Virus record (IMG/VR): IMGVR_UViG_3300046490_000164
Span: 6,170-70,169 of that record
Strand: one strand, 5' to 3'
Length of the DNA stretch: 64,000 nt
DNA from: a virus
Under the pieces are notes generated by a model. That model was not told the origin of the DNA, did not search any database, and worked only from the letters and a program-made list of their open reading frames with translations. Below, in pieces: positions 8,554 to 62,289 of this stretch. Position 1 is the first letter of the stretch, and each line of letters begins with the position of its first letter. A program made the translations under genes and the position numbers.

Positions 8554-8865
8554 GTGGAATCATTTATCAAGCTCATCGCGGACACCTGGGGACTTGCGGG
8601 CCTTCTCATCCTGTCCCCGCTCATCGGGATGATCTACCTCTGGAAGGCCAACCTGAAGCTCCAGGCCGACCTCCAGGGGCTGAACGACAAGCGCATCGAC
8701 GACTCCATCAAGACCTCAGACAAGATGCTCGCCATGGTGAAGGAGCAGGCCAGTCTCTCGACCGAGACGAACCTGGCCCTTGACCGCCTGGGGGATGCGC
8801 TGTCCATCCTCCAGAACTCGGGGCGGATCGACCTCGGCCACATCAAGGCTGGACCAAGGGGCTGA
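8554..8865 (+). CDS. small membrane protein (103 aa; one N-terminal transmembrane helix)
   Basis: Hydrophobic stretch GLAGLLILSPLIGMIYLW near the N-terminus. Confidence 0.45.
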   Translation: MESFIKLIADTWGLAGLLILSPLIGMIYLWKANLKLQADLQGLNDKRIDDSIKTSDKMLAMVKEQASLSTETNLALDRLGDALSILQNSGRIDLGHIKAGPRG

Positions 8866-16840: not shown

Positions 16841-16842
16841 CC

Positions 16843-22800: not shown

Positions 22801-25800
22801 ACCACCGACTACCTTGGCTGGGGCGAGTGCCGGTGCGCCAATGACGCCACCTGTGCGTCGAACACGGGGTCCCCGGGCACCTGTTCGGCCTACGCTGGCA
22901 ACAGCACGGCGGCTCGGGCGCAGTCCCGCCCGGTCGGCCAGGCGGTGGAGATCGCCTCCATCAGCGGGACGGGCCCCTATACGATCGGGCTCACCACGCC
23001 GCTGCATACCCAGTTCCGCTCGACGCTCGGAGCCCACGTTCTGCGGATCTCCGACAACGCCAACAACCTGGCGCCCGACATGAGGTGGATCGGGATCGAG
23101 GACCTGGCGGTGGAGTACGGCGACGGTGGCGACGGCGGCGGCAACATCCAGATCCACGCCCCGGCGGCCTACACCTGGGTGAAGCACGTTGAGAGCCGCT
23201 ACCACATCGGTGGATCGGTCGCCTTCTCGGGCACCTTCCGCTGTGAGGTCCGCGACTCCTACATCCACAGCGCCCTCGACGCCAGCCCTGGCGGCGCAGG
23301 CTACCTCGTGGAGGTGGAGTCCTACGCCGCCGACAATCTCGTGGAGAACAACGTGATCTGGGCGGGCAACAAGGTGCTGGCGATGCGGTCGTCCGGCGGC
23401 GGCAACGTGATCGGCTACAACTACACCGACGACTCCTACGGGGTCGGCTACCCGCACCAGCAGGAGGTGGGCCTGAACGCCAGCCACATGGCGGGCAGCC
23501 ACTTCGAGTTGTTCGAGGGCAACTACGGCAGCAACTTCGACTCGGACTCGCACTGGGGCGCGGAGTTTTCGATCACGGCTTTCCGCAACCAGCTTTCCAC
23601 CAAGCGGGCGAAGGCGAGCTACCTGGCGACGGGGCATGATGACTACAGCCGCCCCAGCGCCAGGACGCAGACCAACTGGCCGTCCGGCACTCCGTTCCAC
23701 CTCTACTACGAGGACGCCTGGAGCCGCCGAGGGATCGGTCTCACGCGCAACCAGCGGGGCTACAACTTCGTCGGCAACGTGATCGGGTATCCTGGGATCG
23801 CGGTTCAGCTCAGCGTGCAGTCCTCGTGGGCTGACTTCGCTCTGCTCCAGGCCCAGGACTCCCTCACCTATGAGATCCTCGCCCCCGGCGGCAATGCGAT
23901 CGGGGCTTGGTATCTCGGGTATGACGGGGACAACCCGGGCAACGCGCATGACTCCGGGGTCGTGGCCTCGACGCTCCGCGACGGCAACTTCGACTTCATC
24001 ACCGGGACGATGCACTGGCACTCTGTCGGCGGCTCCGGAGTGGGCCAGACGACCGCTCCTGCGGCCTCTACGCTTCCCTCCTCGCTCTACCTGGGGAACA
24101 CCAAGCCGGCGTTCATGGGCGCGAACCCATGGCCCTGGGTCCTCCCCGAGAGCGGGTCCGTTGCGACGCTCCCGGCCAAGGCCCGCTTCGACGCGGGCAC
24201 GCCGAACGTGGTGGAGCTCCTTCCCTCAGGCTCGACCTACTACCTCCCCGCGGCACGCGTCACCACCTGGCAGCCAGGCGTCACCAACAACGGCGGGATC
24301 CCCACGACCCGCACCACGCTGTGCGCCACGCTCTCTCCCAGCGGGGGCGACGACACCACGGCGATCCAGGCAGCTCTCACCGCCTGCCCGGCCAACCAGG
24401 TGGTGAAGCTCAATGCCGGCACGTTCAATATCTCTGGCAACGGCATCTTCCCCGTGTCCAACACCACGCTGCGCGGCTCGGGGCCCGGGGTCACGACGCT
24501 CCACGCCACAGGCGCCAATCCGCTCGTGCTCGTCGGCCAGCTCTGGTTCAACTACACGGGCCAGGTCAACCTCGCGACCGACGCTGTGAAGGAAGCGACG
24601 ACGGTAACCACGGCGACCAATCCTGGGCTCACGGCCGGAGAGGTCGTAGTGGTCAACGAGACCTACGACTCGACGCTGACCTGGTTCAACAACGCCATGG
24701 CGGGCCAGGGCCTTGGAGACTACCAGGGCTGGGGTGAGGGGCGCGTCGGTCCCGCCGCCTCCTCTCGGCCGATCGGCCAGGCGATGGAGGTCGTTTCGGT
24801 CACCGGGAGTGGGCCCTACACCATCACCTTCTCCACCCCGTTCCACCGAGCCTACCGGACGTCCAAGACGGCGCACCTCGCGAGGCTCACGGGCGGGCTT
24901 GGCGGTCCCAGGACGGGCGTCGGCGTCGAGGACCTGACCCTCGCGGACGGCGGCGGTGGTGACGACGGCGGCGCCGGCGTCACCTTCTCGGCCGCCTCGA
25001 GGTCTTGGACCAAGCACGTCGAGACGATCCGCTCGGGCAACGCCGCCATCCTCTTCAAGGCGGCCGTGCTGTGCGAAGCCCGCGACTCCTTCATTCACTC
25101 GACCCGGAGCCCCGACCCGGGTGGTGGCGGGTACGGCATCGCGGTGGACTCCTACGCGGCCGACAACCTCATCGAGAACAACATCTCCTGGAACTTCAAC
25201 AAGGTCATGGTGATGCGGTCCTCCGGCGGCGGGAACGTCGTCGGCTACAACTACATGGACGACGGGTATGGCTCCGGCTATCCGAACCAGGTGGAGAACG
25301 GGATCAACGGCAGCCACATGACGACGCCGCACGACGAGCTCTTCGAGGGCAACTGGGGCTTCAACTTCTCCGGCGACTCGACCTGGGGCAACTCCATCGC
25401 CATGACGGTGTTCCGCAACCACCTCACCGGCCTGCGCGGCGGACGCACCTACGCTGGTGTGAACCTCTCCCTCTTCAACCAGGGCGGGTTCTACTTCGAG
25501 GACGAGTACAACCGCCGGGCTGCAGGGACCAACGACTTCCACTGGTCCCACAACTTCGTCGGGAACGTGCTCGGCTTCAGCGGGATGCCGCTGGTCACCA
25601 ACCCGCAGTCCACCTACAAGAACGTCCAGTCCGGGTGGATCTACGAGTGGGCGCCGGGCACCTCCGACACGCTGGTGCCCATGTGGAAGTTCTCCGACCA
25701 GCACGAGGGGGCGAGTGACGCCCAGCGCACGCAGTCCATCAACACCATGCTGCGCGACGGCAACTGGGACTGGTACACGCAGGCCCAGCACTGGCACGGC

Positions 25801-25992
25801 GTGGGTGGCAGCGGCTCCAACCAGACCACGGCGCCCGCCGCCAGCACGATCCCCAACTCGCTCTACCTGAGCTCAAAGCCAGGCTTCTTCGGCGCGAACG
25901 CCTGGCCCTGGGTGAACCCCGTCAACGGGGCCACCACCACGCTCCCGGCCAAGGCCCGCTTCGACGCTGGGACTCCGAACGTGGTCCCCTAG
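16843..25992 (+). CDS. giant multi-domain receptor-binding/depolymerase fibre (about 3049 aa): N-anchor, beta-helix module 1, glycoside-hydrolase-like domain, Ig-like (Big_2) domains, beta-helix modules 2 and 3
   Basis: The ATG at 16843 abuts the previous stop at 16840, and the N-terminus aligns to that of the 26016 gene. Parallel beta-helix repeats occur three times: NNISLENNKPIALNETGGGNVIAYNYADD / NNVIWAGNKVLAMRSSGGGNVIGYNYTDD / NNISWNFNKVMVMRSSGGGNVVGYNYMDD. A DDTSAIQTALNAAG motif is typical of pectate-lyase-superfamily tailspikes. The glycoside-hydrolase-like domain spans about nt 19310-20650. Confidence 0.75.
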   Translation: MHALAIALLMALGPVDLTQVDCAKTATAAHNDSQHLRAYQDWNPICLAAKEIQTALVLVPPTMAQAGSTVTVSGKPGSVIYHREDGTVAVAEAVGTAACTSPCSISLATGSTTISAVATYTGRFASPATTQAFNYTASPIDQSILPSGFRTTWNAGIPGGIPTDTDPTRPATLYLPNGNPYSGYSVNPALAGYSNATTFTIAFQAAIDAAGAAATPTSRKVVLLKAGDYYIAPQNFPGTSFQVGVVVQKDNVVIRGEGADTTRIAANGFIDNYGTVLLFGHRYGSADADFVVQNMAASAYRGDMTVTVSNGSAYAVGDVITIDHQDGAATPVGAVYFNGTYLWEYDSQYFKRQPTVSWAGPGTGAAVYTSDPTDYASANLVAQNVFPLWRSTVQATEITAINGNVLTLKDAINIDFPLSAVPQVWRTVPANTASANVGTRWVGVEKLAIAGGNNIWGFPGGNVGFSYCAYCWAQNIEADGGQWTENGDTHRHPGKYGYNIGVGRSYRTVVRNSYAHGSTDENPGGIAYGIVVGVGSSACLVENNISLENNKPIALNETGGGNVIAYNYADDAVLWNSSTWLENCIDDTHSSFTHHDLIEGNWACNIGADSTHGNSAWQTHLRNYAHGNNTHDQKTDNLRAVGMDGWTGEHAYIGNVLRGGNVYQVTPASQSGTPIYKLGANAGGSGLLWDNGYSLAHITRDGNWDNVSNATVWASGVKTIPDSFYLTGRPAFFGSNAWPWVSPLTGTTTTLPAKKRYDDGTPNIVGAVAAVACTSYTYSAWSPSTCSSGNQTRAVATQAPSGCTNQATNPPVLTQSCTPVDGTFPLSIASSGRYLQTAVGQPWRIQADAAWLLPSMAAPTQVDSYIANRRAKGFNTVYLMAMVHPTGYGVADSYHGNTSNAYDYAGNPAFTTANNFATPGAAYWANLDSIIAKAAAGGMAVALFPNYLGYAGLNQGWETVVSGMTGAQATAWGTWIGNRYKNAANVIWMAGGDHHPSGTALTNVNLISAAIKAAGASQVWGAEFNGHNDVPSIEDADVLRVDMDSFYGYGPSGFYNPFWDADRAYMNGTRPVWVQESGYEYEDNTGQRGTQNSQWFCRRSHFWSVLAGGTAGYGFGTMNVYLMSWGTPGNSLDSPGSIQTGYAHTLFNSLPWWDLRPSGTGTGKAGKTLITAGAGTFGQNNVDTVTSAVTGDGSYLLAYVPGTNAGTAAASITVNMTAVGGNSRARWWNPVTGAFTAIGSCYSNTGTQAFTTPGSHLDGTGNDWLLVLDTAGASCGAVTVTSVAIAPTTATVNGGGTQAFTATVSGTNGPSQVVTWSSSPAGNINVNTGLFTAPASTASPQTITVTACSTVVGYTGICSSAATVTVPATGAVTAPTVASRVVANGPATGTPPTATISASAGSFIVAILTAGGAAPAVTGITSAGTGSGSIGTWDISFTQVGTSPAWARVFTATTSGDLTSVTLTPSGTFDASDSVLTVFVLTGAAATQTNPGKLSATGTNAAVAGPLVSTGTASTLVWAAVGIGGGTVTAATGNTISSQQIYTGDAYYNGQWNGTATPGSHTLGVSTVNTQQWAIAGIEVQGGAPVPLTSIVFDNRTATNLTTSQTHTISVAYTPSTATDKSLTWSLCSTAPSQTAVGNGDPQAYSCGSCTAADSSYGTFNSTSLLYTAPATVSGTMHAYLKGVNTATGLCDYAEEIVTSSEVAYSAFILSDLTVALSGQMQVTFTSKTPSNANGPLTWSTCTTLPTGTPLTCGGSASGSVTSTGLYTAPASGSTAYVFACQASLCGYAVVTLTGGGSTYSLPADRATTWQPGVTYNGGIPTRSTVSATLCPAGQTVSGATCTGSATGADDTSAIQTALNAAGALATNEASARVVKLNPGTFHLSNAGNGLSMKKSFVTLRGSGPDSTILSKGQIGTATGSTVIGVGQDGWVWRAPVALSTTAAKGATSISVASNPGYRVGEILHINEQYDAANSPTYGWFNDSFQTTDYLGWGECRCANDATCASNTGSPGTCSAYAGNSTAARAQSRPVGQAVEIASISGTGPYTIGLTTPLHTQFRSTLGAHVLRISDNANNLAPDMRWIGIEDLAVEYGDGGDGGGNIQIHAPAAYTWVKHVESRYHIGGSVAFSGTFRCEVRDSYIHSALDASPGGAGYLVEVESYAADNLVENNVIWAGNKVLAMRSSGGGNVIGYNYTDDSYGVGYPHQQEVGLNASHMAGSHFELFEGNYGSNFDSDSHWGAEFSITAFRNQLSTKRAKASYLATGHDDYSRPSARTQTNWPSGTPFHLYYEDAWSRRGIGLTRNQRGYNFVGNVIGYPGIAVQLSVQSSWADFALLQAQDSLTYEILAPGGNAIGAWYLGYDGDNPGNAHDSGVVASTLRDGNFDFITGTMHWHSVGGSGVGQTTAPAASTLPSSLYLGNTKPAFMGANPWPWVLPESGSVATLPAKARFDAGTPNVVELLPSGSTYYLPAARVTTWQPGVTNNGGIPTTRTTLCATLSPSGGDDTTAIQAALTACPANQVVKLNAGTFNISGNGIFPVSNTTLRGSGPGVTTLHATGANPLVLVGQLWFNYTGQVNLATDAVKEATTVTTATNPGLTAGEVVVVNETYDSTLTWFNNAMAGQGLGDYQGWGEGRVGPAASSRPIGQAMEVVSVTGSGPYTITFSTPFHRAYRTSKTAHLARLTGGLGGPRTGVGVEDLTLADGGGGDDGGAGVTFSAASRSWTKHVETIRSGNAAILFKAAVLCEARDSFIHSTRSPDPGGGGYGIAVDSYAADNLIENNISWNFNKVMVMRSSGGGNVVGYNYMDDGYGSGYPNQVENGINGSHMTTPHDELFEGNWGFNFSGDSTWGNSIAMTVFRNHLTGLRGGRTYAGVNLSLFNQGGFYFEDEYNRRAAGTNDFHWSHNFVGNVLGFSGMPLVTNPQSTYKNVQSGWIYEWAPGTSDTLVPMWKFSDQHEGASDAQRTQSINTMLRDGNWDWYTQAQHWHGVGGSGSNQTTAPAASTIPNSLYLSSKPGFFGANAWPWVNPVNGATTTLPAKARFDAGTPNVVP
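19310..20650 (+). repeat. copy 2 of the duplicated glycoside-hydrolase-like domain-coding segment
   Basis: Lies in the 16843 gene and is co-linear with 13480-14830 at about 75-80% aa identity. Confidence 0.7.
22240..24220 (+). repeat. beta-helix depolymerase module 2; tandem paralog of 24230-25992
   Basis: Begins YSLPADRATTWQPGVTYNGGIPTR and ends ...LPAKARFDAGTPNVVEL. Co-linear with the following module, which begins YYLPAARVTTWQPGVTNNGGIPTT. Confidence 0.65.
24230..25992 (+). repeat. beta-helix depolymerase module 3; tandem paralog
   Basis: Same motif order as module 2: DDTTAIQAAL, GGGDDGG, PbH1 repeat, and C-terminal cap LYLSSKPGFFGANAWPWVNPV...LPAKARFDAGTPNVVP. Confidence 0.65.
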
Positions 25993-26015: not shown

Positions 26016-29000
26016 ATGATCTCTCTCGCTCTTATCGTTGCAGCAGCTCTAGGGGCTGTAGATTTGTCTCAGGTGGATTGTGCGAAGACGGCGTCTACTC
26101 CGCACAACGACAGCCAACACCTCAGAGCAGTGCAGGACTGGAACCCTATCTGCTTGGGGGTAAAAGAGCTCCAGACCGCGATGATTCTATCGCCACCGAC
26201 GATGAGTCAGAGCGGCGCCACCGTCACCATCACTGGTCCGGCTGGATCGGCCATCTACCACAGAGAAGATGCGGTAGTAGCCGTTGCTGGGGCCTCCGGC
26301 ACCACCTCTTGCGTCTCGCCGTGCGCAGTGGTTGTCGCAGGAAGCACTACGATCTCTGCCGTCGTTACTTTGGATGGACGACTGGCGTCCCCAGCCCTCA
26401 CCCAAGCCTTCAGTGTGGCCGCCGTAGCATGCACCTCCTACACGTACAACTGGGGGGCATGCAGCTCTGGAAGCCAGCCCGGCTCTATCGCTACGCAGTT
26501 GCCATCAGGATGCAACGACACATCGAGTGCGGTTCTTTCCCAGTCCTGCGGAGTCTCGAGCGTGGCGGTCAGCGACCGGACTTTGACCGGCGGTAGCGTT
26601 ACACAGCTCTCTGCGACGGTCACTACGACAGGATCCGTGTCATCCAACGTCTCGTGGTCTTGGGTGAGTGGTGCAGGTAACTCTTCCTCCATCACCTCTG
26701 GCGGTATGTACACGGCGCCGGCCTCCACTGCGTCTATCCAGACAGCAGTAGTGCGCGCTACCTCCACGCAGGACGGCACCAAGTTCGGAACGGCGACGAT
26801 CACGATCCCCGCTACCGTTGTGGCCACAACGGTATCCGTGGCATCTGGCGGTGTGCATGACAGCCTGAGCTACGATCCTGCCGTACATCCAACGTCCTCT
26901 GTAACGTTCTCCGCCACAACGGGGCAGGTCTTGGTTGCCGTGTGCTTCGTCGACGGTACTGGAGATACCTGCACCCCAACCAACGGTTCTGGGGCATCCT
27001 CGTTGGTGTGGACCGTCATCGATTCATCCTCCCAGGCTGGTTACATTGCGGCCTACTGGGCGCGAGTTGGGTCAACCTTGTCGAACGTCACCGTGACTTC
27101 TCCGGCGGCGACCAACAGTGGGACGAACTACCTGCACATCGATGTGTTGGATAACGTCTACACCAGTAATCCACCAATCGGCACGCACAAGGCAGATGGT
27201 GCTAATGGAGTTGCCAAAGCTCCTTCGGAGACGTTGTCCGCGTGCGCCACCGGGTCGATGGTGATGTACAGTGGTGACGTCTGGGCTCTGGGCAGTAAGT
27301 CATCCATGACTGCTGCTGACCTCGTGACCGGTAACAGCAACACCACGATTCTCTCGACGGTTACCAACGACTCCGCTGGAAAGTACGGCTACCAGCCAGT
27401 CAACTACTTCTGGGTCGGCCGCTCCGTGGCCTCGGCCACTGGCGGTGCGGACAGCACGGTCGGAGTTACGCAGCCGGCCACCGGAGGAACGTGGAACGAC
27501 CTTGCCTTCGAAGTGCTCCCATCTTCGTATAACGGAACCTGTTTGGCGGTGGGCGGGAACAGCGGGGGCGGAGGTGGTGGCGGAACAACGGACACGTTCG
27601 TCGCTGGGACGGATACGAACGTTGGAAATTTCGGAGCAGTTGATATCCGTCCAGGTCTGTTGGTCACCGCGGCGCCCGTAGCCACGCAATTCACGGCACT
27701 GCTCGCCAACGCTTGGTCGTATGCGGCCCCAGGTATCCAGGGCATGGCCTGGGCTGTTTATTCCTACCCTGCTGACGGACAGCCCTGTGGGACTGTTGAC
27801 TCTTCTGGCATGTGGACACCGCCGTCTCCGATCGTCCCGCACTCCACAGATCGCACCTGTCTGATTCAAGCTACTTCGACGGCACAACCTACTGCTCGAA
27901 CCTATGCCGCATGGATCCAGCCAGCTAACAACGCTGTGGCTGGTGCGACCTCCATAGTCAACGTGTCGCCGATGGCGACCTATGCCCCCGCTAGCGGGGG
28001 CACGGCTGCATTCACCGCTACTGCTCTAGGCACCTTGGCGTTGAATACGAACACATTCACAACCCCTGCCCCCCCACAGACGTTTGATTGGGCAACCGAC
28101 GTAGGCTCGATCAACTCGAGCGGTAACTGGTCGGCGCCGGGTACTACGTCTGGGTCCATTCGGACCGCTACGGTGACCGCGACACATAGAGCCACTGGCA
28201 AGAAGGCAACTGCGACAGTCACTATCGCCCCAACCGGTGGGTTCACTACCTGGGTTGAGCCTGCGGATCGAGCGACGAAGTGGCAGCCCGGTATCACGTA
28301 CAACGGCGGAATCCCGGCACGCAGCGGAGCCCCCTGCGCTACTGTTACGCCGCTGAACTCTAGCTACAACGGATGGCAGGGTGTCTCGGCGGACAACACC
28401 ACCAGCGACGCTGAACGAATCCAGGCAGCTATCGACTCCTGCGCTCCTGGCGGCGTCGTTCAGCTCACGGACGGCATCTATTACTCAGACTCCCACTCTG
28501 CGAATAAGACATCTGCTCCCTACACCATCATGCTAACGCGCGGCATCACCTTGCGCGGGACTGGCGTATGGAACGGAACCGCCGGTACACAGCTCCAGAA
28601 GAACTTTGGCGCCACAATGGGCAGCTACGCCCCTAGCGTCGTTGCGCCGTCCGGTAACATCCCCGTTGTCCGCATAGAGCCTCCGTTCGCGGGTAACTTG
28701 TCCACGGTAAGCACCTCCTTGAATGTGGACGCGCAGAAGGGCGCGTTGTCCGTGACGGTAGCTGATGCATCGCGCCTAGCTCCAGGGATGTACGTGGTGT
28801 TGGACGAGTTGACCGGAGTAGGCTGGCAGGTAGATCTTGGGGGCAAAGGCATGATCCTCGCCTCCGACGATCGTCGCGTATGGTACCGAACCACCACCCA
28901 GAGGAGCCCTGGCACGGGGGAGTCCGACGTCAATCTTGCTACCGGCAGTGTGTCGGGCTCTGTCGCCGGCTGGTACTCTCGATACGATCGAAAGACTGGA

Positions 29001-30611
29001 GAGTGGAAGAAGATCATATCAGTCGTCGGCAACGTGATTACCTTCGAGACCCCTATCCACATTACGTACAGGGCTGACGCCAAGCATAATGCTCAACTGG
29101 CCTTCTACGTCGGGGATAACGTAGGAGGCGCGTACGTCCCTCACCTCGAAAATGCTGGCATAGAGAACTTGTCGATTACCAACGGCGACGGCGACGGCAT
29201 CGATATGTCTCGTTGTGCGAGCTGCTGGATGAAGAACCTCGATGTATCCAAGAACCTCGGTAGCGTCGTAATCAACGACGGTTACCGCGACGAGCTCCGC
29301 CATCTATACGTACACGACACCGCCTTCCCGCACGACGGAGGCGCCGGGTATGCGATCACATTCAACAGTCAAAGCGCCGACTGTTTGTTGGAGGACTCGA
29401 TCACCTTCAACTTCAACAAGAACATCGCCGAGCGTAACAGCGGCGCAGGCACAGTGGTCGCCTACAACTACTTCGACGCTTCATATGAAGGATATGACTC
29501 CGCGATCGGGACTGGTGGACTCCCCACCTACAACGACAGTGGAACCGGTGGTACGGCCAACTCATGGGTAGAGGTCGGCATGAACGGCTCTCACCTACTC
29601 GGCCCTCACCACACCTTGTTTGAGGGTAACTACTCTCACAACTATGACTCGGACAATACCTGGGGTCCGTCGATCTACATGACTGTGTTCAGGAACCATC
29701 TGTCCGGTTTCCGTGAAGACTTCACCGACACGTTCACCAAGTACAACAACGGTGGTGCCATCAAGGTCTCGTTCTCGGACACGAAGGGTACTATCTCTGC
29801 CAACTACATTCCTTCGGGGCAGACGGTGCCGGTGGACTACCAGTTCCCCAACGTGTCCTTCGGTCCGCAACGCGCTGTTGGCATCATGGCCGGCACCTAT
29901 TGGCACACCATGGTCGGGAACGTGCTGGGCATCAACATGAATAAGCCGTCAAGCTCTACCAACCTGACGGCCGGGTGGGCCTGCGAACGCACCGGGGCCG
30001 CTTACGAGAAGAGCCTATGGAGACTGGGGTGGAGCGTAGGTGATGCGTGGAATGACGTCGATCCGAACGTCAATGCCACCACACTTCGACACGTCAACTA
30101 CGCGGTCAACACTGGTACGTTGGCAGTCGGGACGGGGAACGCGCAGTGCGGTCAGCCGAGCTACAACCCGTCCGCATCACTGTCGGGGCTCGCTACCCTA
30201 CCCAACTCTCTCTACATCACCACTGGCAAGCCGTCCTTCTTCGGCGCCAATGCCTGGCCCTGGGTGGATCCAGTTTCCGGCACCACATCCGTACTGCCTT
30301 CGAAGACGTGTTTCGACGCAGGGGTGCCGTCTTGCGTGTCCGTAGTCCTCGGCACCAGCGGAACACCATCTACGTCTGGTCAGTCCAGGACATTCACGGC
30401 AACCTTGACCGGGGTTATCGCCATGCCAACAGGGACGGTCAACTTCTACGACGGCACCACTCTTCTCGGAACTGGAACCCTCAACGGATCCGGGGTAGCC
30501 ACCTACACCACTTCCGCTCTCACCGTCGGAACCCATTCCATCTACGCAAACTACCTCGGGGATGCTACCAACCCTAGGGCCTCCGCGAAGGTAGTCCAGG
30601 TCGTCAACTAG
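26016..30611 (+). CDS. second giant fibre/depolymerase (1531 aa): shared N-anchor, Ig-like domain, beta-helix module, C-terminal Ig-like (Big_3-type) domain
   Basis: N-terminal about 130 aa, AVDLSQVDCAKTASTPHNDSQHLRAVQDWNPICLGVKELQTA..., is about 65% identical to the N-terminus of the 16843 gene. The beta-helix module carries DAERIQAAIDSC and the PbH1-like block GGAGYAITFNSQSADCLLEDSITFNFNKNIAERNSGAGTVVAYNYFD. The C-terminus TFTATLTG...GTVNFYDGTTLLGTGTL...YTTSALTVGTHSIYANYLGD fits the Big_3 pattern. Confidence 0.75.
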   Translation: MISLALIVAAALGAVDLSQVDCAKTASTPHNDSQHLRAVQDWNPICLGVKELQTAMILSPPTMSQSGATVTITGPAGSAIYHREDAVVAVAGASGTTSCVSPCAVVVAGSTTISAVVTLDGRLASPALTQAFSVAAVACTSYTYNWGACSSGSQPGSIATQLPSGCNDTSSAVLSQSCGVSSVAVSDRTLTGGSVTQLSATVTTTGSVSSNVSWSWVSGAGNSSSITSGGMYTAPASTASIQTAVVRATSTQDGTKFGTATITIPATVVATTVSVASGGVHDSLSYDPAVHPTSSVTFSATTGQVLVAVCFVDGTGDTCTPTNGSGASSLVWTVIDSSSQAGYIAAYWARVGSTLSNVTVTSPAATNSGTNYLHIDVLDNVYTSNPPIGTHKADGANGVAKAPSETLSACATGSMVMYSGDVWALGSKSSMTAADLVTGNSNTTILSTVTNDSAGKYGYQPVNYFWVGRSVASATGGADSTVGVTQPATGGTWNDLAFEVLPSSYNGTCLAVGGNSGGGGGGGTTDTFVAGTDTNVGNFGAVDIRPGLLVTAAPVATQFTALLANAWSYAAPGIQGMAWAVYSYPADGQPCGTVDSSGMWTPPSPIVPHSTDRTCLIQATSTAQPTARTYAAWIQPANNAVAGATSIVNVSPMATYAPASGGTAAFTATALGTLALNTNTFTTPAPPQTFDWATDVGSINSSGNWSAPGTTSGSIRTATVTATHRATGKKATATVTIAPTGGFTTWVEPADRATKWQPGITYNGGIPARSGAPCATVTPLNSSYNGWQGVSADNTTSDAERIQAAIDSCAPGGVVQLTDGIYYSDSHSANKTSAPYTIMLTRGITLRGTGVWNGTAGTQLQKNFGATMGSYAPSVVAPSGNIPVVRIEPPFAGNLSTVSTSLNVDAQKGALSVTVADASRLAPGMYVVLDELTGVGWQVDLGGKGMILASDDRRVWYRTTTQRSPGTGESDVNLATGSVSGSVAGWYSRYDRKTGEWKKIISVVGNVITFETPIHITYRADAKHNAQLAFYVGDNVGGAYVPHLENAGIENLSITNGDGDGIDMSRCASCWMKNLDVSKNLGSVVINDGYRDELRHLYVHDTAFPHDGGAGYAITFNSQSADCLLEDSITFNFNKNIAERNSGAGTVVAYNYFDASYEGYDSAIGTGGLPTYNDSGTGGTANSWVEVGMNGSHLLGPHHTLFEGNYSHNYDSDNTWGPSIYMTVFRNHLSGFREDFTDTFTKYNNGGAIKVSFSDTKGTISANYIPSGQTVPVDYQFPNVSFGPQRAVGIMAGTYWHTMVGNVLGINMNKPSSSTNLTAGWACERTGAAYEKSLWRLGWSVGDAWNDVDPNVNATTLRHVNYAVNTGTLAVGTGNAQCGQPSYNPSASLSGLATLPNSLYITTGKPSFFGANAWPWVDPVSGTTSVLPSKTCFDAGVPSCVSVVLGTSGTPSTSGQSRTFTATLTGVIAMPTGTVNFYDGTTLLGTGTLNGSGVATYTTSALTVGTHSIYANYLGDATNPRASAKVVQVVN

Positions 30612-30678
30612 ATAAGCTTGCTGTACCCACCCGGTAACACACTTAGTAAGCTACGTACCAAGCACAGGAGATACGGCA

Positions 30679-31488
30679 ATGGCTGACACCGACATGACTC
30701 CGACCACCAACGTCCCACTCGTTCCACAGACCGACCCAAGCGCCAAGGGCATGAGCACGTCAGAGGGCAAGATGGCTGCGGCCATGACCGCCCTGTGCTT
30801 CCTTGGCACGGTGGTACCGACCCTGATGACCATGCTCACCGACATCAAGACGAACTTCCCTGGATGGGGCTGGACTGGGCCAGCCATCGGCATCGTATCG
30901 ATTCTGGCCGGTGCCCTCACCAGCCTCGGCTACATGAACAAGCGTACGGAGCTCAAGCTCGGCCTCATCGACTCCGGCAAGAAGATCGCCGTCCTCCTGC
31001 TCCTCCTAGGGGCGACCAACGCTTCGGCTTCTCCATTGGTCCTCTGCCTACAGAATTGCGAGCCGCAGGTCAGGATGATGAAGGCCGTGAGCCCGGACTC
31101 CACTGTCCCCGTGGTGGAGACGGCCCCTGCCCCCAACCTGTGGTTCGGTCCCGCGGTGGGACTCAACGCCTTCACGCGCTTCTCCGCCGATAATGCCTGG
31201 CAGGCCGGCGTCATCCCGGGGATCGGCTACGGCATCAACTGGAAGCCAGCGAGCTGGACGGTCACCTCGAGCTTGATCGGGCTCAACTTTTATCTCCAGG
31301 CAGCCATGTCGAAGGCCGGCAACGGGCCCAGCACGTTCAACATCGACGTGCTGCCGGTGCTGACCTTCATGGACCTTCTGGCCGTGGGGTACGGGCACCG
31401 CTTCATGTTGGCCACCGAGGCCGGGCAGAAGGACACTGGAGGCGTTCTTCTCACTGTAGGCATCCTCAAGACCATCGGGACTCCGTGA
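30679..31488 (+). CDS. polytopic membrane protein (269 aa, at least 4-6 predicted TM segments); holin-like candidate
   Basis: AGGAGA Shine-Dalgarno motif upstream. Several hydrophobic helices, for example AAMTALCFLGTVVPTLMTML, GPAIGIVSILAGALTSLGYM and IAVLLLLLGATNASASPLVLCL. Its stop overlaps the start of the peptidase gene. Confidence 0.55.
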   Translation: MADTDMTPTTNVPLVPQTDPSAKGMSTSEGKMAAAMTALCFLGTVVPTLMTMLTDIKTNFPGWGWTGPAIGIVSILAGALTSLGYMNKRTELKLGLIDSGKKIAVLLLLLGATNASASPLVLCLQNCEPQVRMMKAVSPDSTVPVVETAPAPNLWFGPAVGLNAFTRFSADNAWQAGVIPGIGYGINWKPASWTVTSSLIGLNFYLQAAMSKAGNGPSTFNIDVLPVLTFMDLLAVGYGHRFMLATEAGQKDTGGVLLTVGILKTIGTP

Positions 31489-32255
31489 TGACCGAGACGA
31501 CGTTGGTGCGCAAGTATGGATGGCACAGAGACATCCCGGACCGTCGGGATCGTCTGGCTATCCCAAAGTTCGCCCTCTCCACTCTTCCCCCTCTCGTCGA
31601 CCTGCGCCCCAAGTTCCCTGTGCCGTGCTACGACCAGGGCGACTTGGGGAGCTGCACGGCCAACGCTCTGGCCGGCGTGGTGGAGTTCGAGCGTCTGAGG
31701 GATGGGGCCACTCCGGACTTCGTCCCTTCGCGTCTCTTCATCTACTACAACGAGCGAATGGTGGAGCACTCGATCCAGAGTGACTCCGGGGCCATGCTCC
31801 GTGACGGTATCAAGGTGCTGGCGAAGCTGGGCGCATGCCCGGAGGTTCTCTGGCCGTACAAGCCTGAGGTCTTCACCGTACGCCCCCCTCCGTTCTGCTA
31901 CGTCGAGGCGAATCGGCACAAGGTCAGATCCTACCAACGTGTCTCTCCGACCGTGAATGGAATCCGCTCTGCCCTGGCGACCGGCTCTCCAGTCGCCTTC
32001 GGCTTCACGGTCTACGAGAGCTTCGAGTCACCTGACGTGGCTAGGACCGGGGTAGCACCGATGCCCGGGCGCAACGAGCGAGCTTTGGGTGGTCATGCTG
32101 TGGCTGCCTTCGGCTACGACGACACCAACCAGCGCCTCATCGTGCGCAACTCCTGGGGACCGAAGTGGGGACAGGAGGGGTACTTCACCCTCCCGTACGG
32201 CTTCCTCGAGGAAGGCCTTGCTGACGACTTCTGGCAAGTAGAGATCGTGTCGTAG
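31488..32255 (+). CDS. papain-family (C1A) cysteine peptidase
   Basis: Catalytic Cys context CYDQGDLGSCTANALAG matches the QGxCGSCWAF consensus. The His/Asn region GGHAVAAFGYDD...IVRNSWGPKWGQEGYFTLPYG matches the C1A hallmark GGHAV...NSWGxxWGxxGY. No propeptide or signal peptide. Confidence 0.7.
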   Translation: MTETTLVRKYGWHRDIPDRRDRLAIPKFALSTLPPLVDLRPKFPVPCYDQGDLGSCTANALAGVVEFERLRDGATPDFVPSRLFIYYNERMVEHSIQSDSGAMLRDGIKVLAKLGACPEVLWPYKPEVFTVRPPPFCYVEANRHKVRSYQRVSPTVNGIRSALATGSPVAFGFTVYESFESPDVARTGVAPMPGRNERALGGHAVAAFGYDDTNQRLIVRNSWGPKWGQEGYFTLPYGFLEEGLADDFWQVEIVS

Positions 32256-32273
32256 GCGCGTGGGTAGAGAGCT

Positions 32274-33509
32274 ATGGCGTCTGCGACGGCCCTCATCACA
32301 CTGCCGACAGGGACAAGAACACTAACCCTGCGGCTGGTGTCTGGCGGTCTAGCGACCGTAGGGGACGTCACAGTCTCCTACCCCATTGCGTACACCGACC
32401 TAGCAGACACTGCCGGAATTTCAGACCTAGCAGTATCCGTCGCAGCGTCGGCGGTAGTCTACGCCGACGCTGTCGCGTCGTCTGACCTCGGCACCGGCTT
32501 GATGGGCTCGGCCACGGCGCAGGCCGTATCCGACGTCTCTTCCATCCCCGACACGTCCGCCACTTTCTACGGTGCGGCAGCGGTGCTCGTCGACTCGACG
32601 AGCATCAGTGACTCGCAACTGTCGATACGCTCGTCGGCGGTGTCGTTGTCGGATCTCACACTCACCAACGACATCACTGCTTCCCTGTTTGGGCATCTGT
32701 CGGGTTCGCAAGATATCGGGCTGATCCAGGATTCGTCTCTCTCCTACCTGTCTAGCTACTGTGCGACGCAGGACCTGGCACATGGAGTCGACTACTCTGA
32801 CTCCGTACTTAGCGGCCAGGCGATCAGCTTCGTCTACGACTCGGCAAGCGTCTACGAAACGATAGCTACACTCATAGGTGGCTCCTCTACCGCTAGCACC
32901 GTCTCGTACGCACACGACACATGTGCTGTGTACGTTGAAGTGATGTACGCGGCGTACGCAGCCATCGCCGCTCTCGACTCGCTACAGCTCGACCATTGGC
33001 TCTGGGTAGGGGTCGAAGATCAGGCTAGCCTCTCCGAGAACAGCCTCGGTCTGTTCTCGGCGTTGTCCTCTGCGCCGGATGTGGGCGGCGTCTCTGACCT
33101 TCCCGTATCGTTGGCAGAGTACGTGTTGGTGTGGCCGGATTTGGTGGGCTCCGTAGACAACGCCAGCCAGGTCAACACCTTCATCTACACCATTGCCGAT
33201 GCAGGCGGGATCGGGAGTGCATTGTGGGCGTCTGCCGGTGCGACGCTTGCTGCCTTTGAGCTGCTCCGCACGACCGACGACTTTTTCGCCTACAGTCGTG
33301 CGAGTGCTAGTGTCCTAGACCTAGGGTGGACGGAGGATGAGCTCGTAGTCGTAGCGGACATCTCTCTTAACCCATCGCCTCTTACTCCTGTGGTCGTTGC
33401 GGTCATGGTCAACAAGCCCCCAGACACCCCCGTCGCAAGGGCCACCGTCTTGGCGATTCCATACAACAATCCCCCGGCCGCCCCAGTCGGAACCGCTACG
33501 GAGGTGTAG
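32274..33509 (+). CDS. Ser/Asp-rich repeat structural protein (411 aa)
   Basis: Periodic SDL/SDS/DSS motifs throughout, for example ISDLAVSV, ASSDLGTG, ISDSQLSI and SLSDLTL. Sits in the structural block. Confidence 0.5.
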   Translation: MASATALITLPTGTRTLTLRLVSGGLATVGDVTVSYPIAYTDLADTAGISDLAVSVAASAVVYADAVASSDLGTGLMGSATAQAVSDVSSIPDTSATFYGAAAVLVDSTSISDSQLSIRSSAVSLSDLTLTNDITASLFGHLSGSQDIGLIQDSSLSYLSSYCATQDLAHGVDYSDSVLSGQAISFVYDSASVYETIATLIGGSSTASTVSYAHDTCAVYVEVMYAAYAAIAALDSLQLDHWLWVGVEDQASLSENSLGLFSALSSAPDVGGVSDLPVSLAEYVLVWPDLVGSVDNASQVNTFIYTIADAGGIGSALWASAGATLAAFELLRTTDDFFAYSRASASVLDLGWTEDELVVVADISLNPSPLTPVVVAVMVNKPPDTPVARATVLAIPYNNPPAAPVGTATEV

Positions 33510-33512
33510 ACG

Positions 33513-34727
33513 ATGTCCATCCAGATCACCTGGCAGCCAAGCACCGATCTCGACATCCAGAACTACCTCCTGGAGCGAGCGGTACTTCTCTCGGGACCGT
33601 GGCACCAGGTCAGTTCCATCCCGCACACCATCCCCGGGCCGAACTGGGACAGCGCGCACTTCGTCTTCTACTACAATGACATGTCCGGCAATGCGGCGAC
33701 GTACTATCGCCTCACCGCGGTGGATCGCGCCGGACAGTCCAGCCCAACCTCAGCACCCTTCAGGTCGACCACTGCGGTGCCGGTAGGTACTCCTGGGCTA
33801 GTCACAACCCTCTCCATACCTGCCGGAAACGTGTCCGAGCTTTTGACGCTAGGCTACTACACGATCGAGATCTGGCGCTCTGCTGATGACGGGGCAACCT
33901 GGAATGAGCTCACCGCCCCTCTGGCTTTGGGCGCCGCCATCTACTCCGATCTCTTCCGCAACACCATGCGGATCGGCGGCCTGTCCTTCTCGGTACAGGT
34001 GGATGGCGGTACGACCACCACCATCTCGTTCCCCGGAGAGATTCTTCAGAACTGGACCACCTCCCAGGTGGTGCTGAGGATCAACGAGGTGGTTCCGGGT
34101 CTGGCCTCCGTGAGAGGCATGACAGTGCGTTTGATGAGCCCGAGCACTGGCAGGGCCAGCAGCCTGACCATCGTCTCGGACCAGACTGGAATGTTTGGGG
34201 CTGTCTCCGTACATGGGCTCGATCAGAGGATCCTCCTCGCCAGCGGCGTGATGCTCTACCGCTACTACGATGAGGTCCCTGCCACGCCTGGTGCCAGGTA
34301 TCGGTGGCGCTTCTCAGCAGACGGTGAGGCTCCTTACTCCAACTTCTTCGACTACTCGACTGGGCAGAAGAAGCCTCTGCTCGACACGTCGCTCATGTCT
34401 GTGGCCACCGCCATCTTCACAGACCTCAGTGGGCGCGCCGTGCAGCGTTCGGTGGTGATGACCGCAGTGGGCGCACCGACCTTCAAGAACGGGCTCGTCA
34501 TCGGTGCTGAGCGGTCTCGTGTATACGAATCGGACGGTGACGGGTTCCTCCAGGTAGAGCTTGTACGCGGTACGACAGTACGAGTGGGGATCGAGGGAAC
34601 CAACGTCGTCAGGGAGTTCGTCGTCCCGGACGTTCCGACCTTCGACCTGTTGCAGATCATGTCCACTCTGTCGGACCGGTTCGACGTGCAATCCACGCTT
34701 CCTATCATCAACAGGAGACATGTCTAA
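33513..34727 (+). CDS. hypothetical structural protein (404 aa) with an N-terminal fibronectin-III-like segment
   Basis: N-terminus MSIQITWQPSTDLDIQNYLLERAV...YYRLTAVDRAGQSS resembles an FN3 beta-sandwich (W...Y...Y pattern). Confidence 0.5.
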   Translation: MSIQITWQPSTDLDIQNYLLERAVLLSGPWHQVSSIPHTIPGPNWDSAHFVFYYNDMSGNAATYYRLTAVDRAGQSSPTSAPFRSTTAVPVGTPGLVTTLSIPAGNVSELLTLGYYTIEIWRSADDGATWNELTAPLALGAAIYSDLFRNTMRIGGLSFSVQVDGGTTTTISFPGEILQNWTTSQVVLRINEVVPGLASVRGMTVRLMSPSTGRASSLTIVSDQTGMFGAVSVHGLDQRILLASGVMLYRYYDEVPATPGARYRWRFSADGEAPYSNFFDYSTGQKKPLLDTSLMSVATAIFTDLSGRAVQRSVVMTAVGAPTFKNGLVIGAERSRVYESDGDGFLQVELVRGTTVRVGIEGTNVVREFVVPDVPTFDLLQIMSTLSDRFDVQSTLPIINRRHV

Positions 34728-35656
34728 TGGCTATGCCAGTGGACATCTTCGTGGCAGGAGACGGTCTTCAACCTACCGCGCTCGAGGGTGTGTCTGTTGC
34801 GGTTTTGAGCGACACGACCTCCGAGCTTCTCGCCAACGCCCTTACAGACTCTGATGGGAGGGCTGCCTTCCTTCTGCCTGGGGGCATACCGGGTGTGGTC
34901 TACGAAGTTCGTCTGTACAAGAAGGGCGTGGCGTTCGCCAACCCACAACACATAGAGGTCCTAGATCCTCTCCCTATCGACGATCTGAACCAGTTCGACG
35001 TGACCGGGACCCTCTTCCCGCCAGAGGTCTCCAACGATCCAAGGACGTGCCGCTGCACGGGCTACTTCGTGGGGTTCGACAACTCCCCCCTCCCAGGCAC
35101 CAACGTACGCATCGCCTCGAGACAGGGAGCGGCCGAGCAGGTCCCTCTTGTGGTCGACGGACGTCTAGTTGCCGCGGACTCCATCAACCTCAATGCGGAC
35201 GCACACGGACAGCTAGTGATCGACCTCCTCCGTGGCGGCCGTTACTACGTCTCGGTCGGGGACGAGGACAACACCTGGGACATCCTCGTCCCCGACCGCC
35301 CATCTGCCAACCTCATCGACCTCATACACCCATGCCCGGTCTCGCTTGCGTGGGGTAGCCCAGCTGTCAGCAACACCCTCACCCTGAAGGTCGGCGACAG
35401 TCTCAATGTCGACCTGTCCCTCCTCTTCTCGAACTTCGAGACTCTCACAGAAGGACTATCCCCGTGGATCTTGCTCAGCAGCTCCGACCCTCAAGTGGCC
35501 GCGACCGTTCTTTCGGGAGAGGACAAGGCGGCCATCAACGGGCTGGCTGTGGGGACGGTAATGGTAACGGCAACAGCAGCCGCGGTAGCCAAGCCGGCGC
35601 GCGTGCCGATCTACTCTCTGAACGCACCAACGCTTCAGGTGGTGGTCACACCATAA
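34727..35656 (+). CDS. hypothetical structural protein (309 aa) with a C-terminal Ig-like segment
   Basis: Its start overlaps the previous stop. The C-terminal part, LKVGDSLNVDLS...AINGLAVGTVMVTATAAA, is Big_2-like. Confidence 0.5.
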   Translation: MAMPVDIFVAGDGLQPTALEGVSVAVLSDTTSELLANALTDSDGRAAFLLPGGIPGVVYEVRLYKKGVAFANPQHIEVLDPLPIDDLNQFDVTGTLFPPEVSNDPRTCRCTGYFVGFDNSPLPGTNVRIASRQGAAEQVPLVVDGRLVAADSINLNADAHGQLVIDLLRGGRYYVSVGDEDNTWDILVPDRPSANLIDLIHPCPVSLAWGSPAVSNTLTLKVGDSLNVDLSLLFSNFETLTEGLSPWILLSSSDPQVAATVLSGEDKAAINGLAVGTVMVTATAAAVAKPARVPIYSLNAPTLQVVVTP

Positions 35657-35796
35657 GCTACTCGACCGAATCGATCTGTCGAGAAGCACCTAGCTCCGGG
35701 ATCCACGAACGCTACGCCGGCGTCAGGGCGCTGTGGATCAAGGTCATCATCCGAGCCGTCTTCGACTGGGTCTCCTACAGAGACAGCCCGCGTCTC

Positions 35797-36012
35797 ATGC
35801 AACGCAAGCTGGCAGACAGCGCCAGATCGTGGATCTTCGACGAGAACGAGCTCTTCAATGGGTTCCCTAACGTATGCCGGTGCCTGGATATCGACCCAGA
35901 CCTCGTACGGAAGTGGGCGGGGGCCATGTCGCGCGACCAGGTCGCCAAGATCGAGCACCTCGAGCGTGAGAAACACCTCGAAGTCCCATATCGCTTCCAG
36001 CGGAGGTCGTGA
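35797..36012 (+). CDS. small hypothetical protein (71 aa)
   Basis: First ATG in the open frame after the 35656 stop; the track ORF 35464..36012 was trimmed to it. Leaves a 140-nt apparently non-coding gap upstream. Confidence 0.3.
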   Translation: MQRKLADSARSWIFDENELFNGFPNVCRCLDIDPDLVRKWAGAMSRDQVAKIEHLEREKHLEVPYRFQRRS

Positions 36013-55198: not shown

Positions 55199-55417
55199 CT
55201 AGTTGACGGCGGCGCTGGCCCCGGCGGAAGAGGCGGGCTGCTTGGCCAGGAGCTTCTCGACCTTGGCCTCGGCCTTCTCGAGCTTCGCGGCGAGCTTCCC
55301 CGCGACCTTGTCGTTCTTGGCGATGAGCTTCTCGATCTGGGTCACGGCCTTCTTGGCCAGCTTGAACTTCTTGGCCGCGGAAACCTTCTTCGCCTTCTTC
55401 ATCTTCTTGGCTGCCAT
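55199..55417 (-). CDS. lysine/alanine-rich histone-H1-like DNA-binding protein (72 aa)
   Basis: Sequence MAAKKMKKAKKVSAAKKFKLAKKAVTQIEKLIAKNDKVAGKLAAKLEKAEAKVEKLLAKQ. The AKK/KKA repeats resemble bacterial H1-like proteins (Hc1/AlgP/BpH1 type). Confidence 0.6.
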   Translation of the reverse strand: MAAKKMKKAKKVSAAKKFKLAKKAVTQIEKLIAKNDKVAGKLAAKLEKAEAKVEKLLAKQPASSAGASAAVN

Positions 55418-55478
55418 GTGGTAGTGCTCCTGCGTGTGGGTGATTCGCCCTTGTCAGTGCCCAGGGCGACGGGCATCT

Positions 55479-58144: not shown

Positions 58145-58606
58145 TCACAGGAGAATGCCCTGCTGCACGGGAGGGACACCGAAGTCCTCTTCCCGAACCT
58201 GTTGGATGTACATCTCGATGCGTGGGTCGGTGGGGTCCATGTGCTTCTCCTGGGTCCCCACCAGGAAGTGCGAGTCGTCGACCCCGACGAAGTCCCGTAT
58301 GCAGTCCGTCAAGAGCTTAATGCGGTTGTCCAGGTCGAAACGCTTATACCGCTCTTTCGCGCGTTTTGATGCCTTCACCGCGGGGTTGTTCCACGTCTCG
58401 TTGATGATGGTCGGGAAGAAGAAGCGGAGGTGCAGAGCGTAGACCCTATCCGGCTCGAAGATGCCGGGCTGGAGCATATGGCCGTAGTTCTGCATCATGA
58501 ACTTCGAGAAGTCCTCCGCGTACTTCCTGGCCACCGTCGTGAGCGAATTCCTGAAGTACAGCCTGTTGGAACTCGGGGGGAAGCCCCGGTAGGTGAAGAG
58601 GATCAT
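58145..58606 (-). CDS. rusA: RusA-family Holliday-junction resolvase
   Basis: N-terminal YRGFPPSSNRLY matches RusA LPWPPSNNRYY. The catalytic block RFDLDNRIKLLTDCIRD matches RusA RRDLDNLQKAAFDALT (Asp-x-Asp-Asn...Lys...Asp). Confidence 0.75.
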   Translation of the reverse strand: MILFTYRGFPPSSNRLYFRNSLTTVARKYAEDFSKFMMQNYGHMLQPGIFEPDRVYALHLRFFFPTIINETWNNPAVKASKRAKERYKRFDLDNRIKLLTDCIRDFVGVDDSHFLVGTQEKHMDPTDPRIEMYIQQVREEDFGVPPVQQGILL

Positions 58607-62143: not shown

Positions 62144-62289
62144 GCCGAAGCTCCCATTGGTGCGGTTCGTACCTCGAGCACGACCCCATACCGGAGACCC
62201 GCGCAGCGCCCCAGTGCGTGGCCGTAGACTATGAAGTCACCGGGCTCCAGCTCCCGCCCGGACTTGTCTCGCATGATCGGGGCGGTCAT
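62140..62289 (-). CDS. small hypothetical protein (about 49 aa)
   Basis: Track ORF trimmed to the ATG at 62289, which forms an ATGA overlap with the upstream stop. Confidence 0.3.
   Translation of the reverse strand: MTAPIMRDKSGRELEPGDFIVYGHALGRCAGLRYGVVLEVRTAPMGASA

Follow-up and report, generated by a model that had tools for sequence, protein, structure and literature searches.

A C1A peptidase and a holin-like/barrel-like fusion protein form a putative lysis module among phage tail genes

Lysis of diderm hosts by phages is understood as a process of three steps, carried out by a holin, an endolysin and then a spanin or disruptin. According to a preprint on the disruptin of phage phiKT, about 15% of phages are without a recognisable spanin gene (bioRxiv 10.1101/515445). 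A 64,000-nucleotide stretch of viral DNA (IMG/VR record IMGVR_UViG_3300046490_000164, positions 6,170 to 70,169; hereafter the window), which belongs to a contig of 134 kb or more, raises the question whether a papain-type protease can take part in this process, as it encodes among its tail genes a 269-amino-acid (aa) membrane protein and, overlapping with it, a 255-aa cysteine peptidase of family C1A. An original prediction saw in this pair a candidate lysis cassette with the peptidase as endolysin. Analyzing both proteins and the loci of their homologues, we propose with moderate confidence that the two genes are a putative lysis module, their functions being deduced from gene context.

As predicted, the pair consists of two open reading frames (ORFs) with a stop/start overlap. 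The ORF of the membrane protein (30679-31488, + strand, 269 aa) begins with ATG, and a Shine-Dalgarno-like AGGAG was read from the sequence at 30666-30670 (+ strand), 8 nucleotides (nt) 5' of this start. The peptidase ORF (31488-32255, + strand) encodes 255 aa from the ATG at 31488, which was also chosen by public gene callers, while an alternative GTG start at 31485 would yield 256 aa. At the junction GTGATG (31485-31490, + strand) the TGA stop codon (31486-31488) overlaps the ATG by 1 nt and the GTG by 4 nt, an overlap that, judged by its sequence, is one of translational coupling. Since the GC content at third codon positions (GC3) is 0.84 in the membrane-protein gene and 0.78 in the peptidase gene, both ORFs are regarded as coding.

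The product of the second gene is a C1A peptidase, and the motifs from which this had been predicted align as expected. It matched the Pfam profile Peptidase_C1 (PF00112) over residues 37-236 (50.5 bits against a cut-off of 20.7, E 3.8e-13) and PHROG 16701 'peptidase' (7e-19), and over residues 9-254 it was ~50% identical to PDB entry 3OIS ('Cysteine protease', E 6e-70), which we take to be xylellain of Xylella fastidiosa. In a MAFFT alignment with papain and 19 homologues, Gln50, Cys56, His203, Asn221 and Trp223 corresponded to papain Gln19, Cys25, His159, Asn175 and Trp177. On the + strand, 31635-31655 spans the codons from Gln50 (31635-31637, oxyanion hole) to Cys56 (31653-31655, nucleophile), and 32094-32156 those of His203 (32094-32096), Asn221 (32148-32150) and Trp223 (32154-32156). 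These five residues are kept in every phage and bacterial relative examined and are invariant in alignment A5, in which D18, R20 and D21 of an N-terminal motif are invariant as well. The motif, YGWxxDxPDxRD, lies in the segment YGWHRDIPDRRD and is common to xylellain, whose N-terminal segment reportedly blocks the active site. The claim that the peptidase lacks a pro-region holds for the I29 pro-domain, to which no Pfam match was obtained, and does not extend to the whole N-terminus, as ~45 residues homologous to the N-terminus of xylellain precede the region of the catalytic Cys. The short prokaryotic C1A type is normally without an I29 pro-region (PMC10380794). A signal peptide was not recognised in the sequence, and among Pfam domains only Peptidase_C1 and a weak C39_2 match were detected, with no peptidoglycan-binding domain. 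Sequence comparison thus identifies the protein as a true C1A enzyme of the xylellain type with an intact catalytic set, predicted to be active. More than 8000 homologues were found at E 1e-10; the best matches listed have ~251-280 aa and are 53-60% identical, except for the protein's own entry and P0003 (66%), and the source names listed include Burkholderiales, Verrucomicrobiota, Terriglobia and Pseudolabrys.

The first gene had been described as encoding a polytopic membrane protein. Three hydrophobic helices are indeed present, and in addition the protein carries a barrel-like domain behind a helix that resembles a signal peptide. Its relatives were collected by an exhaustive HMMER search; a word-indexed search returned only the protein itself. 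The 140 relatives obtained are of three kinds: stand-alone proteins of 89-115 aa that match residues 8-105 with 35-51% identity, proteins of ~160-180 aa with an ordinary Sec signal peptide at the N-terminus, which align to residues 100-269, and fused forms of ~240-255 aa. Because the N-terminal module (N-module) and the barrel occur separately as well as fused, the 269-aa protein is a fusion, composed, as the alignments indicate, of a holin-like module, a signal-peptide-like helix and a barrel-like domain.

The N-module (residues 1-100, 30679-30978, + strand) contains the first two of the three hydrophobic helices, which hydropathy and AlphaFold2 place at approximately residues 32-54 (TM1, nt 30772-30840, + strand), 65-87 (TM2, nt 30871-30939, + strand) and 102-117; the helices of the AlphaFold2 model itself span residues 28-59 and 66-109. 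A short FPGWGW loop connects transmembrane (TM) helices TM1 and TM2, and a basic tail, NKRTELK, follows TM2. The third helix (residues 101-117, KKIAVLLLLLGATNASA, 30979-31029, + strand) aligns with the N-terminal signal peptides of the stand-alone barrel proteins P0123, P0125, P0127 and P0135 (alignment A2). It has kept an A-x-A motif (A115-S116-A117), and a small-x-small motif is present in most of the listed fused homologues, which suggests a site for signal peptidase I after A117. The basic loop between helices 2 and 3 is in keeping with an N-terminus on the inside and an exported C-terminal domain. Production of a second protein from the internal in-frame start Met86 was considered and is not favoured, as Met86 is not conserved in the fused homologues.

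Behind a linker that was delimited by alignment (residues 118-150, 31030-31128, + strand, predicted local distance difference test score (pLDDT) 57-81) follows the barrel-like domain (residues 151-269, 31129-31485, + strand). The linker holds a conserved two-cysteine motif, PLVxCLxxC, and a Pro/Ala-rich stretch, and short strands were predicted in it when only the domain was modelled. AlphaFold2, run on the family alignment, gave two long helices followed by six long strands with a pLDDT of 95-98 in the strand region, and the domain-only model reached a mean pLDDT of 90.9 and a predicted template modelling score of 0.78. The six antiparallel strands are 12-17 residues long, and the motifs LWxGPxVG, PGxGYGxxW and LPxxT characterise the domain. 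Residues 151-269 are thus confidently predicted to form a beta-barrel-like domain that resembles small outer-membrane barrels. In BFVD, Foldseek detected an uncharacterised relative from a phage, while outer-membrane-barrel proteins of phages gave only weak matches. A C-terminal aromatic beta-signal is not present in the window protein, which ends in KTIGTP; among the 17 aligned barrel members one has an aromatic C-terminus (P0125, ...SLASF), and most end in I, L or P. No coiled coil was seen in the AlphaFold2 model of the fusion protein.

The N-module was also found fused to lipobox-bearing proteins, namely P0152 (167 aa) and P0183 (234 aa, with a Pro-rich C-terminal tail), whose lipoboxes read ...ATGC and ...ASGC. 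With these lipoprotein fusions included, the inner-membrane N-module appears to have been joined repeatedly to partners directed to the outer membrane.

To what function these proteins belong is suggested by the neighbours of their homologues. The stand-alone N-module P0143 is encoded by a gene that overlaps the end of a Hydrolase_2 gene (locus L023), the gene of P0138 overlaps a Tlde1/YkuD-type gene (L024), and the gene of the fused P0129 directly follows an M15_3 peptidase gene (L026). As it adjoins three different families of wall-active enzymes, which is a signature of holins, we regard the N-module as holin-like. Barrel and C1 peptidase genes are neighbours in seven phage-type lineages, the window included. 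Fused membrane proteins accompany the peptidase in L007, L026 and L027, and unfused barrels accompany it in L008, L009 and L014. The barrel of L007 is 42% identical to that of the window (BLASTP), the membrane proteins of L026 and L027 are 31-33% identical overall, and the peptidases of these three loci are ~35-66% identical to that of the window. Tight or overlapping junctions around the peptidase gene are likewise found in L026, L027, L007 and Arthrobacter phage Mufasa8. In each of the three relatives whose upstream gene is readable, a canonical or lysozyme-like wall hydrolase is encoded directly upstream, M15_3 in L026 (5e-08), M15_4 in L009 (2.7e-06) and a goose-type-lysozyme-like protein in L007 (1.6e-04).

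The order of genes differs among these loci. L007 (GC content not computed) encodes the goose-lysozyme-like protein, the fusion, a DUF6527 protein, the C1 peptidase (66% identical), two small TM proteins and a Gp80 fibre. In L026 (GC 69%) M15_3, the fusion and the C1 peptidase are followed by a 93-aa protein, a TM/coiled-coil protein and a lipoprotein-like protein, and in L027 (GC 71%) the fusion, a 63-aa protein and the C1 peptidase precede TM/coiled-coil proteins, two lipobox proteins and a Gp80 fibre, so that TM plus coiled-coil proteins and lipobox proteins are encoded 3' of the module in both. The low-GC locus L009 runs from a tail fibre through a signal-peptide protein, a protein with a C-terminal TM helix, M15_4 and the C1 peptidase (44% identical) to a barrel with its own signal peptide and a 77-aa two-TM protein. 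L008, also of low GC, encodes the C1 peptidase, DUF6527 and the barrel, and L014 (GC 40%) the C1 peptidase and the barrel. In L114 (GC content not computed) a Hydrolase_2 gene, a gene for a 113-aa protein and a TM::barrel fusion gene stand together without a peptidase gene, which indicates that the barrel is a component of lysis cassettes in its own right. A 170-aa neighbour in L025 that looked M15-like by eye had no Pfam or PDB match and was not counted.

Two further proteins of these loci were noted. A small DUF6527 (PF20137) protein is encoded between the barrel and C1 peptidase genes of two unrelated lineages (L007 3313-3681; L008 330-614, Cys-rich) and may be a third component of the module, one that is not present in the window. 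In L026 a 165-aa lipoprotein-like protein (3058-3555) with the zinc-metallopeptidase motif HEVGH and no Pfam match is encoded 3' of the module, after the TM/coiled-coil protein; going by this motif, a lysis cassette may here contain a further protease aimed at the envelope.

C1 homologues also occur in phages with annotated lysis genes. Gordonia phage Lilbeanie gp40 and Mufasa8 gp26, both 29-30% identical to the window peptidase, lie inside annotated lysis cassettes, and in Mufasa8 there is a 4-nt overlap between this gene and that of a membrane protein upstream of it. The 753-aa endolysin of Alicyclobacillus phage MMB025 consists of an N-terminal C1 domain (33% identical), an Ig-like domain, an Rv2525c-type glycosidase-like domain and PG_binding_1. 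Mycobacteriophage LysA carries a papain-family/C39-like N5 domain (Payne and Hatfull, PMC3314691). These precedents qualify the view of the original prediction that a C1A peptidase serving as endolysin would be unusual, as C1 or papain-like peptidases are already known from lysis cassettes. The lysis-cassette reading is thus supported by three observations, namely that homologues of the N-module adjoin wall enzymes, that the pair recurs after M15 or goose-lysozyme-like genes, and that C1 homologues are found in annotated lysis cassettes.

In the window itself the slot that holds M15 or lysozyme-like genes in the relatives is occupied by a fibre gene. Among the predicted window proteins no lysozyme, amidase, CHAP or M15 enzyme was detected with Pfam and PHROGs, in agreement with the earlier statement that no canonical endolysin is visible there; this and the following negatives hold for the window as a part of its contig. 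A lipobox scan of all six frames revealed no spanin candidate in a coding-like frame near the module. Scanning the window for membrane proteins yielded no second holin and only a low-complexity ORF (55203-55424) and an ORF in the head/neck region (8554-8865, + strand), which encodes a 103-aa protein with an N-terminal TM helix and then a probable coiled coil; neither lies next to an enzyme gene. When all lysis-neighbour proteins of L007, L009 and L023-L027 were compared with the window by tblastn, only the membrane protein and the peptidase were recovered. A match of the L026 M15_3 protein to the C-terminus of a 1474-aa protein (43127-43462, E 0.09) was dismissed as chance, as gaps fall on the zinc-ligand positions. 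A hidden T7-type lysozyme, hinted at by PHROGs 2252 and 5033 ('endolysin; inhibits RNA polymerase'), was rejected too: the protein in question (60207-60662, - strand) is a dATP/dGTP diphosphohydrolase (PF18909), and the PHROG names are misleading in this case.

If the two genes serve in lysis, their products might work as follows. The 269-aa protein would be inserted into the inner membrane, its N-terminus remaining cytoplasmic and its first two helices forming a hairpin like that of class II holins, as the company of its homologues suggests. The third helix would act as an internal signal sequence that exports the C-terminal domain, and would probably be cut after Ala117, given its homology to signal peptides and its A-x-A motif. 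The released domain of ~150 aa would then fold as a small barrel, located presumably in or at the outer membrane. The peptidase, having no signal peptide, would build up in the cytoplasm, perhaps kept inactive by its xylellain-like N-terminal segment, and would get to the envelope only once the holin-like module permeabilises the inner membrane. There it would cut peptide bonds, either in stem peptides or cross-links of peptidoglycan or in the protein tethers that join outer membrane and wall, and the barrel protein would take part in the outer-membrane step. As a protease that is ~50-60% identical to cytoplasmic bacterial enzymes, it fits tether proteins better than peptidoglycan as a target.

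Regarding the part of the peptidase in such a module, we favour the reading, suggested by sequence relationships, that it is an accessory envelope-degrading lysis enzyme rather than a proven sole endolysin, because it is 55-60% identical to cytoplasmic bacterial proteins and because the relatives keep a separate wall hydrolase. The original proposal therefore stands as to the lysis context, which follows from the neighbours of the homologues, and needs correction as to the endolysin, since relatives carry a canonical or lysozyme-like one too. In this phage the peptidase may nevertheless be the only wall- or envelope-degrading enzyme of its cassette, as no canonical endolysin is visible in the window and the upstream slot is without one. 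A more specific proposal, which we consider a tentative one with a low chance of being right in full, is that peptidase and barrel make up an envelope-disruption system so far unrecognised, in which a holin-released protease cuts either peptidoglycan peptides or the protein tethers that hold the outer membrane to the peptidoglycan, while the barrel, often fused to the holin, weakens or marks the outer membrane, and which operates here without canonical endolysin or spanin.

That the peptidase is instead the sole endolysin, set free by the upstream holin to cut peptidoglycan as an endopeptidase in place of a lysozyme, amidase or CHAP enzyme, is improbable in our view. The lack of a canonical wall hydrolase in 64 kb and the fibre gene in the upstream slot speak for it, as does the MMB025 endolysin, in which a C1 domain is joined to PG_binding_1 and a glycosidase-like domain. 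Moreover, clan CA cysteine peptidases such as CHAP and NlpC/P60 are established wall peptidases, and the N5 domain of LysA adds a papain-like example (PMC3314691). However, the three relatives with a readable upstream gene all have a canonical or lysozyme-like endolysin besides the peptidase, an endolysin of this phage may lie on the remainder of the contig of at least 134 kb, and the cytoplasmic bacterial proteins to which the enzyme is 55-60% identical cannot act on peptidoglycan. The main rival, which we hold to be unlikely if slightly less so, is that the phage acquired an auxiliary cytoplasmic protease directed at host takeover, anti-defence or phage-protein targets, whose place beside a lysis gene is incidental. 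Several observations weigh against a role in lysis and most of them favour this alternative. Bacterial homologues at 55-60% identity are chromosomal and without signal peptides, as the window peptidase is without one, the nearest relatives being ordinary bacterial chromosomal genes; two of them are single stand-alone genes amid housekeeping genes, and the natural substrate of xylellain is unknown (PMC12090721). Xylellain-type C1A peptidases have been acquired by horizontal transfer by Caudoviricetes and giant viruses (PMC10380794), and at least 537 IMG/VR contigs encode them, including giant-virus metagenome-assembled genomes (MAGs) and contigs of 300-400 kb. Among these, the 80 loci with the best matches (L034-L113) were surveyed within 6 kb of the peptidase gene; neither the barrel nor the holin-like module was found at any of them, and only 3 of 136 immediate neighbours were lysozyme-type genes. 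The neighbours are heterogeneous (RNA ligase, HNH, EF-hand); RNA-ligase genes flank 4 of ~70 loci examined and genes of EF-hand proteins 3. Likewise, the peptidase gene of the jumbo phages FLC9 and XacN1 and of the 595-kb phage LR756511 stands among unrelated genes outside recognisable lysis cassettes, and in jumbo phages the enzyme presumably acts in the cytoplasm. From the 0 of 80 loci and the 3 of 136 neighbours it follows that lysis is not the general role of viral xylellain-type peptidases. Further points on the same side concern the membrane protein: its N-module matches no holin family in Pfam or the PHROGs, and members of the barrel family occur as ~190-aa signal-peptide proteins in bacterial chromosomes with no phage genes nearby (L018 201-779, on the Gemmatimonadaceae MAG contig JANPKW010000090.1; L012 1831-2412). 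The phage barrel proteins may, by sequence, derive from such a host envelope protein. What an auxiliary protease leaves unexplained is the linkage to the barrel in seven lineages of very different GC and gene order, fused or unfused and with tight or overlapping junctions, and the independent placement of C1 peptidases in actinophage lysis cassettes is hard to attribute to chance.

Still less credence is given to the idea that the pair is a moron next to the fibre genes that serves to exclude superinfection or to destroy receptors. In such a moron an outer-membrane protein comparable to lambda Lom or T5 Llp and a protease would remove or mask the receptor and thereby spare the progeny from binding to debris. 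Some phages are known to encode small outer-membrane barrels next to their tail-fibre genes, as exemplified by lambda Lom, the pair lies directly 3' of receptor-binding-type genes, and the barrel family is also a normal bacterial envelope protein; yet lysis is what the holin-like module and the endolysin neighbours of the relatives point to, the peptidase carries no signal for its own export, and no promoter-like site belonging to the gene pair was found. The original prediction had further considered a virion-associated or maturation protease. This we judge highly improbable: the gene does lie in a long block of structural genes, but its product shows no similarity to prohead protease families and is a near-full-length copy of a bacterial stand-alone enzyme, and at all related loci the gene is accompanied by envelope or lysis genes and never by head genes.

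The setting of the pair is that of a phage tail region. As had been stated, fibre genes lie directly upstream, encoding three giant fibre- or depolymerase-like proteins, two with an apiosidase-like glycoside hydrolase (GH) domain and one with beta-helix and Big_3_5 domains. The latter, a 1531-aa fibre- or spike-like protein (26016-30611, + strand; Pfam: C-terminal Big_3_5, 2.7e-19; Beta_helix, 1e-3), is encoded by a gene that ends 67 nt before the module, and according to the ORF map no endolysin gene lies in between. The other two (12437-16840, + strand, 1467 aa; 16750-25992, + strand, 3080 aa) each combine the apiosidase-like GH domain with Collagen_bind_2. All three have hydrophobic, signal-peptide-like N-termini, which is odd for tail fibres; their start codons are uncertain. 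Downstream of the pair further large structural-type genes follow, one of them with a weak baseplate-wedge match. From ~55 kb onwards the opposite strand encodes ThyX, RusA, a RecA/UvsX-like protein, a Cas4-type nuclease and the dATP/dGTP diphosphohydrolase, and given these DNA-metabolism genes together with the structural genes, the window is regarded as phage-like DNA. No megablast match to 30000-36000 was obtained in the INPHARED phage collection, and an exact 40-mer taken from the start of the window gave none in IMG/VR. Contigs of 1.6-4.4 kb that are identical to the module stem from JGI sample 3300046495 and the runs SRR35913982 and SRR35913983. With ThyX, RusA, a Holliday-junction resolvase and the RecA/UvsX-like protein as its companions, the diphosphohydrolase N-domain protein mentioned above (60207-60662, - strand; PF18909, 2.3e-25) is encoded in a block that also includes 59034-59852, 58145-58606, 62286-62636 and 62866-63987, all on the - strand, and another window protein matches Cas4-type exonuclease PHROGs. 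This block hints at a nucleotide-pool or modified-base DNA module.

A full-text literature search yielded no description of a C1A peptidase and a barrel protein in a lysis cassette. As far as this search shows, the combination of parts is both unusual and undescribed. Should the proposed role be correct, the known means of phage lysis would be extended by an enzyme class and an outer-membrane component, both of them new, in the form of a module conserved across phage lineages of high and low GC, and xylellain-type peptidases, which are abundant in bacteria and viruses, would obtain a first functional context. The fusion protein raises a question of membrane biogenesis, as an internal signal peptide would have to function behind two membrane-spanning helices. 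The peptidase would be of possible interest as an enzybiotic component if it were to act on cells from the outside.

Among known systems, the peptidase is closest to xylellain, with which it shares a length of ~255 aa, the Gln/Cys/His/Asn set, the YGWxxDxPDxRD motif and the lack of both I29 pro-domain and signal peptide. Whereas the bacterial copies are stand-alone chromosomal genes, the window gene is coupled to the gene of a holin-like/barrel fusion in a phage tail/lysis region. With the cysteine peptidases of endolysins and lysis cassettes (CHAP, NlpC/P60, LysA N5, Lilbeanie, Mufasa8, MMB025) it has the clan CA fold and the Cys/His chemistry in common, as well as, putatively, a place in a lysis cassette by a membrane protein or holin. 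The actinophage C1 proteins differ in being only 29-30% identical and in having Gram-positive or mycolata hosts, and the window peptidase is a stand-alone, full-length, bacterial-like protein without a wall-binding domain that is paired with an outer-membrane-type barrel.

The N-module resembles class II holins and pinholins, which have two TM helices and cytoplasmic termini, in its two helices, short periplasmic loop and basic cytoplasmic tail. Its stand-alone homologues of 89-115 aa resemble them further, as N-module genes overlap or abut wall hydrolase genes in L023 and L024 and, in fused form, in L026, which is not the case in the window. Unlike these holins, the N-module is joined to a domain predicted to be exported, in the window as well as in at least three further lineages, and its formation of holes is putative. 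The barrel-like domain differs from the 8-stranded outer-membrane barrels (the N-domain of OmpA/OprF, OmpX/Ail/Lom, OmpW, PagL and NspA) in its six long predicted strands, with 7-14% identity, Z scores below 8 and no Pfam match, and as modelled it may be oligomeric or another kind of barrel. Compared with spanins (Rz/Rz1, T1 gp11) and the phiKT disruptin, the fusion protein has no lipobox, periplasmic coiled coil or cationic peptide, and its outer part is beta-barrel-like. The barrel need not replace spanins, since spanin-like genes seem to be present in L026 and L027 too. What it would share with them is that a component of lysis is aimed at the outer layer of diderm cells, and the fusion of an inner-membrane module with an outer-membrane module recalls the logic of spanins.

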